Source of the DNA: Paramecium tetraurelia
Lineage: Eukaryota
DNA length: 64,000 nt
Direction: 5' to 3'
Assembly (NCBI GenBank): GCA_000165425.1
Contig: CT868207.1
Location: 806,001 to 870,000 of the forward strand
The position numbers and the translations under genes are program-made. Shown piece after piece: positions 2,665-53,792 of this stretch; positions within the stretch are counted from its first letter, which is position 1, and every line of letters starts with the position of its first letter. Below the pieces are notes generated by a model. That model was not told the DNA's origin. It did no database searches and saw only the letters and a program-made list of their open reading frames with translations.

Positions 2665-4206
2665 TCAATAATTATTTCCATAATTTAAAGCTGTTCTAGG
2701 ATATTTATTTTCAATCTATTAATTCTCTTTTGCAAAACTATAATACATTCTTACATTATCCTTTCTTTCAGAAAACAATTATAATTTCTTATTTTCTTTT
2801 GTTCTTGCATAATAACTATGTTCATATTACTATTATTATTATTATTATTATTATTACTATTATTACTATTATTACTATTATTACTATTATTACTATTATT
2901 ACTATTATTATTATTATTATTATTACTAAACTAAAACCATTTGTTATTATGGTAAGCTTTAATATTATTACTATTGTTGATGTTGTTATGTAACAATAAT
3001 TTGCTATTCCTATTAAATAAGTTTATCTTCTAATTACTGTATTCTTTATTCATATTTTTCTAATATTTAATCTTCAACAACTAAAAAATTAATAAATTTT
3101 ATACCTCTCTTATCTGCTATATTATCTGAGTCTCTTTACTTAGTCAATTTTTAAATGTTTTAATATTCCATTAATTCTTCTTTAAGTTTAAAGATTTAAT
3201 TCTTTTTAATCTATAATTATTCTTCCAATTCATCAATTCTATCCTCTAAGGCTTGAACTTTTAAGTTTTATTGTTTTTTTAAAGTACCCACTTTTGCATT
3301 ATCTAATTCTTAAACCAATTATTAAATTTTTCTTTAGCTATTATCTGAGAAGGTTTAATAAATGTTTTATAATTCAGTCAGTTGATTTTAACTAATGTTA
3401 AACTTTTAAAATAAATCTTAGTATTAAATTTAATAATTTTGATCCAAAGATTAATATCTCTAACTCCAAAGCATTATCTATTCTTTATATTATTATAATT
3501 ATTATTGTAATCCTTCTATTTCATGTTTGAATTAATCAATTTCCTTACATTTATTATTAAATTTTTCATTAACATCTTATTCTACTTTACCTTTTGTGTC
3601 TTAAAAAGCTTTTTCAAATTGTTTTATTACATCTTTTTAGTCATGAATTTCTTATTATTGGGTTTCTATAATTTTGATTAATTTCTAATTTTCATCTATT
3701 AAATGAGCCATTTTTTCAGATGACTGATTTTAATATGAGTTGTTCTCTCTAACATCTTTCAATTTTTAATCTTTCTATTCCAATTAAAGTTGCATTTATT
3801 AAATTTCTGAGAACAAATTGTTAATCTTTTCCTACAATGTAAAATTGCTATCTTATAGCATATGATTTTAAGTGTTGACTATTTAAAAACTTTCATGATG
3901 TTCTTCCTCTAAAACATTAATTTTATCTTTCAATTATCTATTTTCTAATATAGCCATTTGGAGTTAGGTTGATAACTCTTTAATCACTTCTCTATATGTT
4001 TCTGGATCAGTGTCTGTTATTTTAGAGTCCTCATTTTCATTATATTCTTAAATTCGAGACAACTATCGAGGAGTAGCTCCTTATCTGGGAGTCACGTGAT
4101 AGGATGAAAAACTAGTATTCTAAGCATCCTCATTAATGGTTGATGTAAAGACATTGGATGTATTTATTGGGGTGAAACTAGAACCTTAAATTCTTGGAGA
4201 AATCAT
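2665..4206 (-). CDS. Coiled-coil protein with a 34-residue polyglutamine tract
   Basis: MISPRIQGSSFTP... followed by E/K/Q-rich heptads. One intron at about 3081-3104, then VVEDQILEKYEQRIQQ..., poly-Q, ...NYGNNY*. Confidence 0.8.
2827..2928 (-). repeat. (TAA/TAG)34 trinucleotide repeat encoding polyQ
   Basis: 102 nt of tta/cta triplets on the + strand, in frame with the minus-strand CDS. Confidence 0.9.
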
Positions 4207-4311
4207 TCCGTTATAAATTTATTAATAAATATATATAAATTCCCTTATATTTCATAAAGTGTCTTAGAAGAACGTCGTTTACATTATTTTGCAATAAAAA
4301 TATTAATGTAA

Positions 4312-16536: not shown

Positions 16537-18068
16537 TCATTATTATTTGGATGCTTTTCTCTTCTTTTTTGGAGCTTCTTATGGTTATTCTACTGGTTCT
16601 TCTTCGACTTCTTCTACAACCTTTTTTGATTTGGCTTTCTTTGACTTCTTGTCTTTTTTGGGTTAATTATTTTTCACTTTCAAAATAAAGTCCTTCTCCT
16701 TTTAATTCTGCCAATACTTCATCCATGATGTCAGTATTTTTGTTCAATTCTCCTCCAGCAGTTAAGAATTTTAATCTTTGTTCCATTTGATCCTTCAACT
16801 TGACTCCAAACTTTTCAGTTGGTTAGATCAAGAAATGATCCAATCTGGAAGCAATAGCACACTTGTTGGCTAGATTTCTATTAAAATTAAATGGGAATTA
16901 AATACCTAGAGATTTTTCCTTTATCAGTTCCATTAGCTCTTCCAATATAAGTACTGTGATATAATAAACCATATTTAGGAGTATTTCCTCTAGTTTTCAA
17001 GGCTCTGAACAATGCTTTTTCTGCTCCCAAGATTTGGATGGTAGAGGCAGGATATTTAGCAAGATTGATCAATGATCCAGCATGAGCTATTAATTTAGCA
17101 GCTACATTTTCACCAATCAAAGCTGTAAGATTTGGTGCAATAGCTATCATTTTGTTCTTCAAATATTCTTGAATATTGTCTCTAAATTCAAATTGATTGA
17201 GAACTCTGATGCATAGATCCTTTAGAGTAGATAAATCAATTTCTGAGATGTCTTAACCCATGGATATCTTGGCTGCTTCCACAATTTGTTTAGCCAATTC
17301 AGCATCAGTTGTGAGTTCTTCAATAGCTTCCAAAGCTTCATCATTGATATTCTTCTTGTCTCCATAGGTATCAACGATTCTGGTGAAGACTCTATTATCT
17401 GTGACAATCTTGGCCAATTCTGGGAAATGCCATGAATACCATTCTTTGATTCTCATACTTAGTGTGTTTAAGTCCTTGTCCATTTATTCAATGATGCTTA
17501 TAGCCTAAGTTACATGTTTGTCTTCTCTGTTGATATCCAACTTCACTTTGTTTCTGGATACTTGATGTGCCAAACCCAACTAAGCTTAAATGTAATCTCT
17601 TTCTTTGAAATCTTCATTTCTCAAGAAATCAACGAAATGAGTTCTGATTCCTCTGAACACTTAGGCTGTTGCTTCGTTCATTTTGCTCTTCAAATTCAAA
17701 TATTATTGGAGTCCTGCAGCCAAACCTTTGTCGGAGATAGCAATTTAGAAACTACAATAAATCAGTGTGATTACTTGCTCTTCTTCCCAACAGCAGGGAG
17801 ATTGGTTGATAAGAAATCGACCAATTCTTAAGTTACGGTACCTGTATGGATTGCTAAAGCATTGTTCAAAGCTATTTCAGCAGAAATAAATGGTTGAAAA
17901 GCCTGAATAAGGAATGATAATTACTTTTAAGTGACATACTTCTGCAAATTAAGCAAAGTCAGAGAATTGTTTTTGAATCTATTTCGATTTGACATTTGTT
18001 TCATCTACACTATCACATTAGAACAAGGCTAAACCAGCAGCTGCCTCAAATAAATAAAATGTGCTCAT
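16537..18068 (-). CDS. NOP56: Nucleolar protein 56, box C/D snoRNP core protein
   Basis: [16 protein letters not shown]...[70 protein letters not shown], and a K/E-rich tail. Confidence 0.93.
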
Positions 18069-18109
18069 AAATTAAATATTTAATTTAATGTCAATCCCTG
18101 AGTAATATT

Positions 18110-18727
18110 TAATTAAAATAAAAAACATACTCATCAATGTCAGTTCTTCAATTTTTTCATATCTGAGATGGGTTCTTCAATTAAAATTTGCTATTCCTTC
18201 AGAATTAATTGTTGGTTATTCTTCTTGTTCCAATCACAAACACATCAATTTTAATACAATCCTATAAATATATTCTTAATCTAACTTTCAATCAGCATCT
18301 AGATCTAAATGAACTCTTTGTTTAGTTAGTTTTCATATAAATGAATGAAAAATGGTTAAATTAAATTACAAAACTTCCTGCATTCCTTTCTCAACCTAAT
18401 TCATTTCTAAATTAGACTTAACCTTGTTATTATAATTGTAATACAACTACTCCAATCAGCATCATCTAGGTCTCCCAATCACCAAAAATAGATTTCATTA
18501 ATTAAAATAGTTCCTATTCCAAAGTTGACATTTTGAAAATAAAAAAAAATGATTGGCGAATACTCAATTCATTTAATAAATTCTTATTATGATCTTAAAA
18601 GCATCATAATCTTTGATGTTGCATATTTTCTATTTGATTTATTATTTAAACTTTATACATCCACAAATATATTTCTTATTTTAACTCTCCTGCACTTATA
18701 TTTACTCAACCAAATTTGATTTTGCAT
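18110..18727 (-). pseudogene. Possible decayed gene between the snoRNA and NOP56
   Basis: ATG at 18727, then coding-like stretches (e.g. VKSNLEMNQVEKGMQEV) broken by several TGAs. No homology recognised. Confidence 0.3.
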
Positions 18728-18747
18728 AAAATCATTAAAAATATATA

Positions 18748-18811
18748 TCAGCATTAGCATGAAAATTTAGCAGCATACTTGTTTCAGAACAGGTCTGTAT
18801 TTTATCATCAT
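18748..18811 (-). ncRNA. Box C/D snoRNA with two 18S rRNA guides (equivalents of yeast Gm1428/snR56 and Am796/snR53)
   Basis: Minus strand reads ATGATGA (C) taaaat ACAGACCTGTT CTGA (D') aacaagt atgctgc (degenerate C') taaat TTTCATGCTAATG CTGA (D). The guides are complementary to conserved 18S AACAGGUCUGU and CAUUAGCAUG. Confidence 0.85.
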
Positions 18812-18869
18812 TGTCATATTAATGACTTAATTAAATACTAATTATATTATAAACATATTTATATTAATT

Positions 18870-19196
18870 ATGGGATTGATCTCAATCATGTTTAATGGCT
18901 ATTACCTTAAATTTTATTGTTTCCTTAATAAATTAACAATCCAATAATTTTATCCATTAAGTTATAATTAATAAATTGTTATTAATTATGGGATTTATAC
19001 ATAATAGATCATACTTAGTATTAATTTAAGATCAAAGTATATTTATAGCATGTTTTTGGTTAATATTATTGCTAGTAATTAATCATTATTGAGTTATGAG
19101 TAATTGATATAACAATAAAAAATCAGTTTGAATTTGGGCATCATATAAGGATAGGAGATTGAAAATCTGATGAATTATATGGGTTGCTTTTCATGA
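18870..19196 (+). CDS. Possible small hypothetical ORF (108 aa)
   Basis: Open code-6 frame MGLISIMFNG...MGCFS*. Very AT-rich, so it may be a chance ORF. Confidence 0.25.
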
Positions 19197-19300
19197 AATA
19201 AATTTGTTAAGAATTATAATTTTTAGGAAATGCATAAGTAATATAAGTTGATTAAAAATTGAGACAAAATTTTGAGGGTTTATTAATATTAAATTTGTAA

Positions 19301-29362: not shown

Positions 29363-32300
29363 TCAATTCATAATCTCAATTTTGATAAATTAGATTTGTT
29401 TACTAAAATCGGTTCCATATTAATTTCATCTTTAACCTTAACTAACTCGTCCAAATTGCTGCTTCTATTGGGATCACCAACTGTCATGTCTAGATTAGGG
29501 TATTATTCCTTGAAATCAGTATTATCTTGAGTCTTCTTTTTTGGTTTCTTTTGGTTTTGTTATGCAAGTTAGGATTCCGCAATCAAATCATAAATATTGA
29601 GTCTATTTTCTTCTGGAATTGGTTTTACTTCAATAACTAAGGATATATATAACATTTACTTGAAAGATTATCTTGGGGCGATACCTTTTAGGTAGTACCT
29701 GTACGAATTACTGATCTTTTGAGATAGATTGCAATGGCAAGAAATCCAATTGCAATTGCAACGGCGGTGAAAATAATCCCAATTACATTGTTTCCAGTCA
29801 TCATGATAATGACTGCACCTGTGTAAATAAAAATGATGATTAAAATTAGCATTTGCTCTATGATATTGTACCATTTGACAAAGCAGGGTTCCATTTTGAT
29901 ATGAAAGCCAAGAACAAAAATTAGGATTCCAATTGAAAATAGCATTTAGTATTCAAATGAACTATCCAATGTATTAAAGAACGAACTCAAACCCATAATC
30001 AACAGTTTAGCTTAAACATATATAATGATGTAAGTGGATTTGAACTTTAAATCCAATGAATGATCGCTGAATTAGAAAGTAGGTTATAAATAAGTTGAGA
30101 GAGGATAATAAATACCGACTCCAATCAATCCTAAACCCATATAAATGTAATGCTCAGATGTTAAACATTCGACAGATGTTTCTCTAGCAAATTTGTAAGG
30201 CAGGCTACTATAATCACAAATGTAGGCATCCATGAATGTTCTCATTACTGTCATGAAAAAACCACTCAAAATGGAGATAACTCTTGGAAGAATGAATTGA
30301 ATATGAGGAAATCTAGCTAAATTGCCATTTTCATCTTGTCCAAATGTATTCTTTTGAACAGCATCTAAACTCAGGGATCCTAAGAGTCCATACAGTATGG
30401 ATACTCCCAAGGAGAAATAGAAAAAGAAGGCATAGCTGTCATAGAATGCAGATCCACTAATTGTATCTGATCCTGATACAGATGTACTACCAAACCAACC
30501 TACTTATGGGTTATATGCCACACTTGCTAAACTGTACAAATCATATATCTTAAATATTAAAGCAAGGATATTACTGGAAGTGGGTTTGAATTCAATTGAT
30601 TTCTGTTATTGATTAGCAAGGTTTTTCTCATATTCTTCAGTTGCTTCGAACAAAGTTTCAATCGTGAGTTTAGCAACTATTTTCCAATCAGGCATTTTTT
30701 ATCTTTTATGATCTAGCATTGGTTTTTTTTCAATTTTTGGTTTTGGTTGAGCAGCAGCCAAATTAGGAAAGTATTTCTCTATGATATTGACTCTTAGCCA
30801 GTCATTACAAGAATAGCAACATTTCTTATGACAAGGTAATTTCTAGGCGTATGCTGATTCGATCTCCTATCTGCCTTATTCATATTATTATTCTTTTTAT
30901 TTTTTAGACAATTTGGCAGCTCTATTTTCTGCATTATTCTAATTGATTTTAGATTGATTGGCTACCTCCTCTTAGAATACTTACTTAACTTTAATTGCAT
31001 CAAACTTTGTGAACTCTGTTTGAACAGCATTTGAAGTAAAATTCTATCTTAAAAAGGGATTATCTGAGTTTTTGTTATTTTGTAATACCTTTTTATTTGA
31101 ATATTTGAAATTAATCATTAATGTTTTCATCGAAGTGATTAATTAAGGATAGATGTGATCAAGGACCAATTGTTTCAGATTATCGAAAAGATCTCCATCA
31201 TACCCTTTGATCATGCCTTTGATCAAACCAGCAAATTAGACTTCATTCAAACTATAAGTTTAATTGACCCAGATAGTCTTGGCATACTTCTCATAATCAA
31301 TCAAATCAAAGTGCAATTCAGTCATTCTACTGAATTCCTATAAATCAGCAAAACAAATGGAAGGTTCCAATCCTTAGTCGTTATTGGCAAATTCCATAAA
31401 TACTTCATGCATAAACTCTGCAATCATTTGATCGGATGATTATAATGAGAAGTATTGATCTGACGATTTGATATTGCCTAATGCTTTATCATTTAATTTC
31501 TTTATTTGAATCTGACTCAGACTATCAGTCTTCTCACTTTTTATTTCTTAAACTGGTTTGTACTTTTGTTTGTATAGAATTTGCTTATCTTCAGGTTGAT
31601 AATCTATCTTCTTAATAAGGGTATCAGTTTCTTCTGCAATTTTATAGACAGAAGTGAACTGTGGGATCAAATCATTCATCTTTTACCCAGTATCTTCATC
31701 TAAATTAAAGAGATCTCTCAGTTTTATTATTTCAACATTTTTTTGGTTTTCTAATTCATTCATTTCTTCTAGACCACATCTACAACACAAACAGTCCATT
31801 AAGTACTTTTTGAACCCTGTCAACTCCTATTCTTTAATAATGTTCTTCTATTTATCTAACAATTCCTATTCTAATAATGTAAGATATTCTTGATATACAT
31901 TTCTACTTACCAATTTGTGATCATACTCTAACTCTGGACCATCATATTTTATTACATTGATAGGTTCTCCTTAGATTAGATTTTCTGTCAAAGATTATTT
32001 CAATTATTTCAAATCCTCTTATTTCTATTTCTTTTTTTATGTCTAATTCTTTATAGCATTCAATTTTGTATAGATAATCTATAACTTATTCAAGTATTTC
32101 ATATACAGAATACCAACAACACTTATATCACATAGAACATAGTTCTCTCTCAACATCTCCAATACTTTCTTCAAGATTTCTCTTTTCTTCCTTTCGAATT
32201 CTTCTCTATTCAATAACAATGATAAAAACAATGATGTCCCTGTCACTCCAATCATACACACAAATAACCCTAATCCAACTGCTCCTTATGCAAAGTATTA

Positions 32301-51671: not shown

Positions 51672-53792
51672 TCATTCTATAACTTAAACATTATTTACTA
51701 TTCCATAATTTTTATTAACTCTTATTCCACTCCTATGATTCCTAAGAAACCCTTAGCACTCATTAAAATGAACTTTCTCTGGATCAGAATTATAATCTTA
51801 GGAATCCATCCCCCTTAGATGTTAAAACTTTTATTGTTAATGATATTTTACAAAATGTAGATAACAAATATAAGATAATCACTATTATGGATATTAATTC
51901 CTTTATTAGACAAGGCCTTATTAAAACCCTTAATTTATAAATGCTTGTTAGTTAAGTACAAAATCAGTTTATAGGGGTTGCGCTTAATTAGGATATGATA
52001 TTTAAGGAGGAAATGACAATTAGGGAGCATATAATAGTTGAGAAGGGAATTTCTGTTCTTAGGATACACAAGGTTATGGTTGAGGATACTGTCTTGTCTA
52101 TTTTAGATTGAATAAGTTCTTATGATTTATAGGCTTAGGAGATTTACTCATTACTTTCATATACTGTAATAGTTATTTATTTATCTAAGGCAAGACTTAT
52201 CTAGCAAGATCATTTTTAAGTTAATTGAAAGGAACGAATTTAAGCAAATCTCTAGAAGCATAGTTCCCATCACTATCTACAATGTTTTTGACTTAATTGT
52301 TCAAGGCTGACAATTCATCAAAGTTGCCATCTCCAATACCAATTATGATGATTGATAATGGTAAATTTTACTAAGCATTTACTTCATTAATAAATTCTTT
52401 CATATCACCTACTTATCCATTTGTGAAGATCAAAAGAATCTAATATTTATCACTATCCTAGAGTTTCAATTAATGAGCCATATCCATAGCGATTTTCAAG
52501 CTTGGTGTTAATTTGGCAGGACCATCGAAACACAAATGAGGCAATTACTTTATGTAGCATTAGACTATTCCATCCAAACCAATTACTCTTTAAACTATTA
52601 ATTAAAATAAGATACTCTGGATCTTTTGGGTTGTCATTAAGGGCGAATGAAGATAGTGTTTTATTAGTGTTAATCAAATTCATTTTTGGTTTGCATCCAA
52701 AACCATATACTGGCACACTCTTATCTTTATCATAACATATTAAAATTTCCATTAAGCTAGTTATGGCTTATAAATATTGACTCTGAGCTCCATTACTTTT
52801 CATATAATGTAATGAATTAGGATCATTGAAATTGCCATTTGAAGCTGCAAAGTCAATAGCAGTTATCAATTTTAACTATAATCCTCCTCGGCAATATTCT
52901 AGAAGCGTGTAATTAGGATTGAATTAAAAACCATTGAATTGAAGGACTCCGGAAGATTCTTTACCATTTGTTTTGCTCATAAACTCCTTTTCCAATATCC
53001 TATTCCATTTCTTATGCTCTATTAATTCATCTACACAAAATGTCGTCTCTCCTAGATACAAATGCTTGCCGTTGTTTCTATGATCCCATAATTCAACTTT
53101 GATATTCATTTGATGATCTCCACCACATAACTTGAAAGATGAGAAATTGATTTCATTCCACTTTGGTTGTGTTGTCTTCTTTGCAAACTCAGTCTCATGA
53201 ATTAAAACAGGGTTATTGTCATCCATAATATATCTGTAGAATCTTAACTGTGGACATGTGCCATGCCAAAACAAAAATCTAGTTTCTTTAATGTCATGTG
53301 CAGATAAGGTAAGGATTATTTCATCTTTGATCTACTTAATTATATCTGCCTATATTATGAAATAGCCACTCCTTCTACCAGAAATGTTAATTAGATCACC
53401 CATTAAAATTTGATCTCTTGAAGCAACTATAAGAGCAACCGTAGTTTCTGCAATGCCAACAACCTATAATCGTGATAAGTATTTTACCTTAGATTAAGTT
53501 GGACTGATGTAATGATAAACTTCTAGCTTTAAATGTTATTAGACTTCAAAATGATACTCCAATTATATTGATGTTTTGTAATTAGGGTTCAAATTATTCT
53601 TCACTAATTCAGTTTATCCGAATTTGGTCCCTTGAATACAATATCATCTATGCACTTACAATGGTTATTATGTTTTAAGTAGATTACAGCATAAGGATCT
53701 AAGTCTGACACAATGTCTAGATCATCTAATTATCTGCAACTTATATAAAGGTCCAGCTTCTCAAGTAATTCAGAATTCTCAGCTTGATTCAT
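51672..53792 (-). CDS. Copine-like protein (C2-C2-vWA) with a P/Q-rich tail
   Basis: SCRQLDDLDIVSDLDPY, NNLNPNY, AIDFAASNG..DPNSLHY, YDKDK.VPVYGFG and LPLSIIIIGIG motifs. Confidence 0.88.

Follow-up and report, generated by a model that had tools for sequence, protein, structure and literature searches.

Does the intergenic DNA upstream of the Paramecium tetraurelia gene for NOP56 encode a single box C/D snoRNA with two guides, and does its place beside the gene for one of its own presumed core proteins carry any meaning? The question was raised by a first-pass annotation made from the letters of a 64,000-nt stretch of DNA (the window, within which all positions below are counted). In that annotation, one very compact minus-strand RNA was proposed to do the work of two yeast snoRNAs, snR56 and snR53. 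Our analysis indicates that the locus is very probably transcribed on its own, as a monocistronic gene, into a 70-nt box C/D snoRNA whose two guides are both active.

Ends and architecture of the RNA

Expression was analyzed in X24, a single size-fractionated small-RNA run labelled with the same species, about 60% of which was read and mapped over positions 18000-19250. Two contig runs, X19 and X20, contributed no reads, which does not bear on expression. A total of 247 reads were found, exclusively on the minus strand and all in three bins covering 18714-18839, and the small-RNA depth was zero in the rest of this region. The ends of the RNA were sharp, with 120 reads starting at position 18815 and 59 reads passing position 18746 into non-genomic letters, which we take to be a commercial small-RNA 3′ adapter. 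Taken together, the read starts and the adapter junctions define a 70-nt RNA, in agreement with the minus-strand small RNA of about 65 to 75 nt that had been expected. The location first proposed for the gene was thus correct, but its extent of 64 nt was slightly too short, as the mapped RNA runs from 18815 to 18746.

The boxes and guides that had been assigned to the minus strand were verified by direct reading and by pattern matches, and all their coordinates are correct (Table 1). The C box starts 5 nt from the mapped 5′ end, and 2 nt separate the D box from the mapped 3′ end. As read from the letters, the spacers are 17 nt long from C to D′ and 18 nt long from C′ to D, and the D′-C′ loop measures 8 nt; the D′ box is a perfect CUGA, whereas the candidate C′ box, UGCUGC, matches at only 4/6 positions. 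The 15-mer formed by the D′ guide and its box occurs a single time in the window (18784-18798; 0.06 occurrences expected with up to two mismatches), and the D guide with the D box also gives a single exact match there (18748-18761). The TTT at 18764-18762 lengthens the pairing of the D guide to 13 bp, including one G:U, against CATTAGCATGGAA.

Table 1. Features of the snoRNA locus, with positions in the window and the basis of each assignment.
Feature	Position	Strand	Basis or comment
Mature box C/D snoRNA, 70 nt	18746..18815	minus	Small-RNA read ends; same bounds in the Rfam snR56 match
C box ATGATGA	18805..18811	minus	Letters; aligned with the C box in the models of snR56, DdR1, and snoR25
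D′ guide ACAGACCTGTT, snR56/U25-type	18788..18798	minus	Predicted target: 18S G equivalent to yeast Gm1428
D′ box CTGA, abuts the D′ guide	18784..18787	minus	Letters, exact match
Degenerate C′ box TGCTGC, 4/6 to TGATGA	18770..18775	minus	Aligns to UGcaGA of the snR56 model; inferred assignment
D guide TTTCATGCTAATG, snR53/snoR53Y-type	18752..18764	minus	Predicted target: 18S A equivalent to yeast Am796; possibly U6 Am47
D guide core CATGCTAATG, 10 nt, abuts the D box	18752..18761	minus	Letters
D box CTGA	18748..18751	minus	Letters, exact match
PSE/USE-like element AATCCCATAAT	18867..18877	minus	52 nt ahead of the mapped 5′ end; predicted promoter
PSE-containing 36-nt repeat, second copy	18963..18998	minus	81% identity, 118 bp upstream of the first copy (18845-18880)
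T5 run	18737..18741	minus	5 nt beyond the 3′ end; may act as a terminator or 3′-end signal

The arrangement of boxes alone does not go beyond chance, since the pattern scanned (ATGATGA or GTGATGA, 10-25 nt, CTGA, 15-45 nt, CTGA) was found once on the two strands of the window, compared to 0.235 times expected from 200 first-order Markov resamples; the case for a snoRNA therefore rests on other evidence. The match to the snR56 family, the sharply bounded reads, and the conservation of the guides elsewhere raise this locus above chance.

The same run also revealed that the locus is not the only source of such an RNA. Sixteen X24 reads match the window down to position 18766 and then diverge (agreement 0.93), and their consensus, read on the RNA strand, has a slightly longer spacer and ends with the same D guide and D box. 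No second copy of either guide with its box is present within the window. A second, slightly different copy of the snoRNA is thus expressed from elsewhere in the genome, and it is probably a paralogue that arose by whole-genome duplication.

Guide families and predicted 18S targets

A scan of the whole window at the Rfam gathering thresholds gave no match. The RNA nevertheless aligned to the snR56 model (RF01188) at 39.5 bits, below the gathering threshold of 54 (E = 0.0015 on 1.5 kb and 1.4e-4 on 141 nt), and weakly to the snoR53Y model (RF01279), at 17.2 bits compared to a gathering threshold of 43 (E = 0.66 on 141 nt). Rfam used at these thresholds misses the snoRNA, and so would the Rfam-based ncRNA annotation described in PMC5485702.

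The consensus guides of RF01188, RF01559, and RF01600 have the same letters and register as the D′ guide, whose core and register also recur in the DdR1 (Dictyostelium) and snoR25 models. The RNA thereby shares the guide core ACAGACCUG, its register, and the 18S G that it selects with the snR56, SNORD25 (U25), AtsnoR19, DdR1, and snoR25 snoRNAs (clan CL00049, comprising RF01188 and RF00054, and also RF01559 and RF01600), and its box C/D architecture and size are those of the snR56/U25 clan. Unlike the snR56 model, in addition to its score below 54 bits, it contains in its 3′ half a different, functional-looking guide; yeast snR56 is not known to have an assigned D guide. In Neurospora, the snR56-type guide of CD41 is partnered by a guide for 26S-Cm1489 instead (PMC2780460), an example indicating that different lineages give this guide different partners.

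The last 10 nt of the D guide together with the D box are the same, letter for letter, as the consensus guide and box of snoR53Y, CAUGCUAAUgCUGA. This 10-nt guide, CAUGCUAAUG, abuts a CUGA in an identical form in snR53, snoR53Y, and Neurospora CD11 (clan CL00080, RF00338 and RF01279). In snoR53Y and CD11 it precedes the D′ box, whereas in the Paramecium snoRNA it precedes the terminal D box and follows a 5′ half that resembles snR56. Judged by its letters, the 5′ half of the RNA is thus snR56/U25-like, and in its 3′ half the snR53/snoR53Y guide occupies the D position instead of D′. The Rfam matches and the identity with the consensus guides are in line with the guide types that had been named in the first-pass annotation and, together with the small-RNA reads, they confirm its compact double-guide box C/D RNA as one that is expressed, 70 nt long, and equipped with two guides.

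The pairing of both guides was analyzed on stand-in 18S sequences. Contaminant eukaryotic 18S sequences were sought by scanning prokaryotic assemblies for an 18-nt 18S motif, which yielded at least 49 loci; among the loci listed, 23 had at least 700 nt of upstream sequence, and 16 of those had an rRNA-like context. Six of the 16 were submitted to Rfam, and all six were recognized as eukaryotic SSU rRNA. L023, a fungal 18S standing in for the species' own 18S, contains a full-length eukaryotic SSU at 183-1977 (1790 bits). On this stand-in, the D′ guide formed 12 bp (1 G:U) and selected G1423, its next best site offering 7 bp, and the D guide formed 13 bp (1 G:U) and selected A793, with a next best site of 8 bp containing 4 G:U. 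Under the D+5 rule, each guide had a unique site on L023, where the D′ guide is predicted to select the 18S G that ends AACAG in AACAG-GUCUGU and the D guide CAUGCUAAUG the 18S A that ends CAUUA in CAUUA-GCAUGG. These are the G and the A that had been expected from the D+5 rule, here found on a fungal stand-in.

Both positions are known sites of methylation in other eukaryotes. In Neurospora, 18S-Gm1423 is assigned to CD19/CD41, homologues of snR56, snoR19, and U25, and 18S-Am793 to CD11, the homologue of snR53 and snoR53Y (PMC2780460); the two positions selected on L023 bear the same numbers as these Neurospora Nm sites. In yeast, Gm1428 depends on snR56 and Am796 on snR53 (PMC5199042), and the earlier statement that yeast employs two separate snoRNAs is accordingly right. 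In Arabidopsis, RiboMeth-seq data link G1434 to SnoR19 and A801 to SnoR53Y (PMC8053127), and among the C/D guides that Hoeppner and Poole traced to LECA, plant, human, and yeast counterparts are given for both sites (PMC3511168).

In the cell, the Paramecium snoRNA presumably assembles with fibrillarin, Nop56, Nop58, and Snu13. The D′ guide would then pair with the conserved 18S segment AACAGGUCUGU, leading to 2′-O-methylation of the G that corresponds to Gm1428 in yeast and Gm1490 in human, and the D guide would pair with the 18S sequence CAUUAGCAUGGAA, leading to methylation of the A equivalent to yeast Am796.

Conservation of the guide pair and a possible U6 target

A strict search pattern (D′ guide, box, 10-40 nt, D guide, box) retrieved six metagenome loci, which represent three distinct sequences, and found no match in viral contigs. 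Three of the loci (L050, L053, and L054) are one sequence of 24% G+C. A WD40 frame in L050 is open only if TAA and TAG are read as Q. L052 (26% G+C) is a relative of L050, to which it is 74% identical over 487 nt ending at the snoRNA. The L050 and L052 homologues scored 36.1 and 35.9 bits, respectively, with the snR56 model, and L052 scored 27.5 bits with the snoR53Y model. The two remaining loci (L051 and L055, 47% G+C) correspond to a 1020-bp contig that has repeats of CCCCAAAA at one end and of GGGGTTTT at the other (C4A4/G4T4) and contains a gene for an Fe/Mn superoxide dismutase with an in-frame TAA, read as Q, inside the conserved domain. This contig has the appearance of a complete nanochromosome of the spirotrich type, which would carry a protein gene and a snoRNA gene together.

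Two minor features of these loci were also recorded. The snoRNA of the 1020-bp contig has a 10-bp terminal stem and lies downstream of the superoxide dismutase gene on the same strand. L050 contains, at 4134-4224, a long palindrome of GGGGATT-type heptamer repeats, which gives spurious Rfam microRNA matches.

Guides and boxes are retained in all three distinct homologues, while the spacers, the C′ boxes, and the flanks differ. Both guide families are old and well known, and their combination is common to the Paramecium locus and other ciliate-like sequences. The two-guide arrangement is thus not peculiar to the Paramecium genome and appears to be common to distant ciliates. We see an even chance that both guides were joined in one minimal RNA early in ciliate evolution and were kept in a Paramecium-like genome, in two other AT-rich ciliate-like genomes, and in a spirotrich with C4A4 telomeres, in which case the D guide and its partner may serve two 18S sites and A47 of U6.

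Such a U6 target of the D guide was absent from the first-pass annotation. The same type of guide is assigned to U6-Am47 in Neurospora CD11 (PMC2780460), and Arabidopsis SnoR53Y is assigned to U6 A48 besides 18S A801 (PMC8053127). By analogy with these fungal and plant counterparts, the D guide could pair with the conserved U6 sequence AUUAGCAUGG and lead to methylation of the equivalent of A47, which may thus be a third target of the snoRNA.

A stronger version of this idea is that the RNA is a genuine C/D snoRNA in which only one guide acts on 18S, the D guide being devoted mainly or entirely to the U6 A47 equivalent or being a relic. Besides the double assignments of CD11 and SnoR53Y, it would agree with the G:U at position 11 of the D guide in the window copy and with the variability of the 18S target. 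Among the matches listed, only 8 of the 16 stand-ins have the exact 10-nt complement of the A796 type where it is expected relative to the other site, 622-636 nt upstream of it, from which it follows that this target is not universal among eukaryotes; one more of the 16 has the complement at 1349 nt.

However, the D guide forms 13 bp on the stand-in 18S, more than the 10 pairs (9 Watson-Crick and 1 G:U) that we estimate for U6 on the basis of its conserved sequence. Furthermore, the reads of the second Paramecium copy have a C where the window copy has a U at position 11, which turns the G:U into a G:C with CAUUAGCAUGGAA, as constraint from that target would predict. Position 11 is likewise a C in all three distinct homologues, and in both the second copy and the nanochromosome sequence the complement extends into a GGA that is specific to 18S. 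We therefore regard an 18S role for the D′ guide alone as unlikely, and an RNA with two guides active on 18S remains the preferred reading.

Putative promoter elements and neighbouring genes

The element AATCCCATAAT matches the Tetrahymena snoRNA USE, AAACCCATAA, at 9 of 10 positions, in surrounding DNA that is very AT-rich. In Tetrahymena, the USE is located 53-125 bp before C/D snoRNAs and is present at 22 of 27 intergenic snoRNAs (PMC3273799), and the Oxytricha PSE is found 50-60 nt upstream (PMC3177221), a spacing that the Paramecium element fits. The CCATAA core is placed at -63 from the C box in the window, and at -56 and -55 in L050 and L052, respectively. The window contains three exact ATCCCATAAT sequences, and two of these lie upstream of the snoRNA. 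Allowing up to one mismatch, the PSE motif occurs 19 times in the window compared to 11.9 expected, and 3 of 100 shuffles reached 19, so that the motif shows no clear enrichment.

At the other end, runs of 3-13 T are found within 35 bp downstream of Tetrahymena monocistronic snoRNAs (PMC3273799), and the T5 run next to the Paramecium RNA is a possible terminator, a weak indication in DNA of about 21% G+C. We infer that a PSE/USE of the ciliate snRNA type, some 52 nt upstream, would drive transcription of the snoRNA, which would end near the T run. The Tetrahymena intergenic monocistronic C/D genes described by Andersen and Nielsen in 2012 (PMC3273799) are likewise small (about 60-70 nt) and intergenic, preceded by a USE/PSE of the AAACCCATAA type and followed by a run of T. 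The D′ guide of the Paramecium snoRNA distinguishes it from this published set, in the supplement of which CAGACCTG/CAGACCUG occurs 0 times, the set being non-exhaustive according to its authors (PMC3273799). TtnuCD21 and TtnuCD30, which have SSU/U6 targets, were considered as Tetrahymena counterparts and rejected, as their guides differ.

Several other PSE-like sites were inspected. No X24 small-RNA reads were found behind the second PSE copy (18985-18994), and alignment detected neither a second nor a decayed copy of the snoRNA there. The pair of 36-nt repeats, 18845-18880 and 18963-18998, may reflect a duplication of the promoter or include a distal element. On the plus strand, an exact AAACCCATAA at 29989-29998 precedes ATGATGT by about 25 nt, with CGCTGA further on, but this C/D-like motif (30024-30070) had no Rfam snoRNA match at E ≤ 1, and the arrangement at 29989-30070 may be due to chance. 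By eye, no obvious RNA gene was found downstream of the PSE-like sites at 53083 and 42052.

We then considered the neighbouring genes. The downstream gene is NOP56, as shown by its Nop domain (PF01798, 7.8e-72) and by its best PDB match, human NOP56 (309 bits, compared to 249 bits for NOP58). Its ATG is at 18068-18066, 680 nt from the D box, and it is co-oriented with the snoRNA, as had been described; the neighbour on the opposite side is ASF1, which is encoded by the plus strand.

This position had led to the proposal of a functional link, reminiscent of the snoRNAs hosted by NOP56 in animals. The snoRNA would be derived from a long transcript shared with NOP56, coupling the expression of a guide RNA to that of a core protein. 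In addition to the common orientation and the short distance from the NOP56 ATG, a weak minus-strand poly(A) signal (depth 0.5-3) at 18126-18335 and 18462-18545 could be taken as a trace of such a transcript. However, the oligo-dT depth, which was 16.9 at the 5′ end of NOP56, fell to about zero at 18084-18125 and was zero at 18546-18713, although this is not strong evidence, with 29 reads from about one third of the run. The snoRNA is preceded at -52 by a PSE-like element of its own, and its 3′ end is directly followed by a T5 run. Moreover, a tblastn search of the six metagenome loci with NOP56 and ASF1 found neither gene in any of the three distinct loci within the sequence examined. The putative promoter element, the gap in oligo-dT depth, and the absence of NOP56 from the homologous loci make co-transcription unlikely, and we give a shared transcript very little credence. 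The earlier argument that Paramecium introns of about 25 nt are too small to host snoRNAs is contradicted as well, as a handful of introns of about 80 nt contain snoRNAs (PMC5485702, citing Chen et al. 2009). The NOP56 neighbourhood of this independently transcribed snoRNA is probably incidental, and its position provides no evidence of a regulatory link.

Finally, that the boxes are a chance arrangement or the RNA a functionless degradation fragment, as the box statistics and the lack of a gathering-level Rfam match might suggest, is scarcely credible and is refuted in practice by the small-RNA reads, with their sharp, strand-specific ends, and by the guides, which have the sequences of known family guides, correctly in register, and are conserved in three other distinct sequences with differing spacers and flanks.

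Both guides, both target sites, the class of RNA, and the type of promoter were already known, and the snoRNA falls within a known class without being unusual in it. Our literature search did not turn up a published description of this Paramecium RNA; the catalogue of Paramecium ncRNAs by Chen et al. 2009 (RNA 15:503) was outside this search and may list it. PMC6461891 was discarded as a prior description, its subject being Cryptomonas paramecium, which is not a ciliate. The locus adds to ciliate annotation one experimentally bounded snoRNA gene, with a putative promoter element and a second expressed copy. It also illustrates that the guide modules for two ancient 18S sites are packaged according to lineage, in two RNAs in yeast and in one in ciliates. 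These data may be of use in snoRNA homology searches and in reading ciliate RiboMeth-seq maps, and they leave the general understanding of snoRNAs unchanged.

Two minor observations concern the spacer between the snoRNA and NOP56. The weak poly(A) signal described above is flanked by zero-depth bins on both sides, and no minus-strand ORF of at least 60 aa is present at 18126-18335 or 18462-18545; it could stem from an unannotated short transcript or from pervasive transcription. About 140 nt downstream of the snoRNA, the minus strand also contains a perfect 8-bp hairpin at 18586-18610, formed by ATTATGAT, a 9-nt loop, and ATCATAAT.
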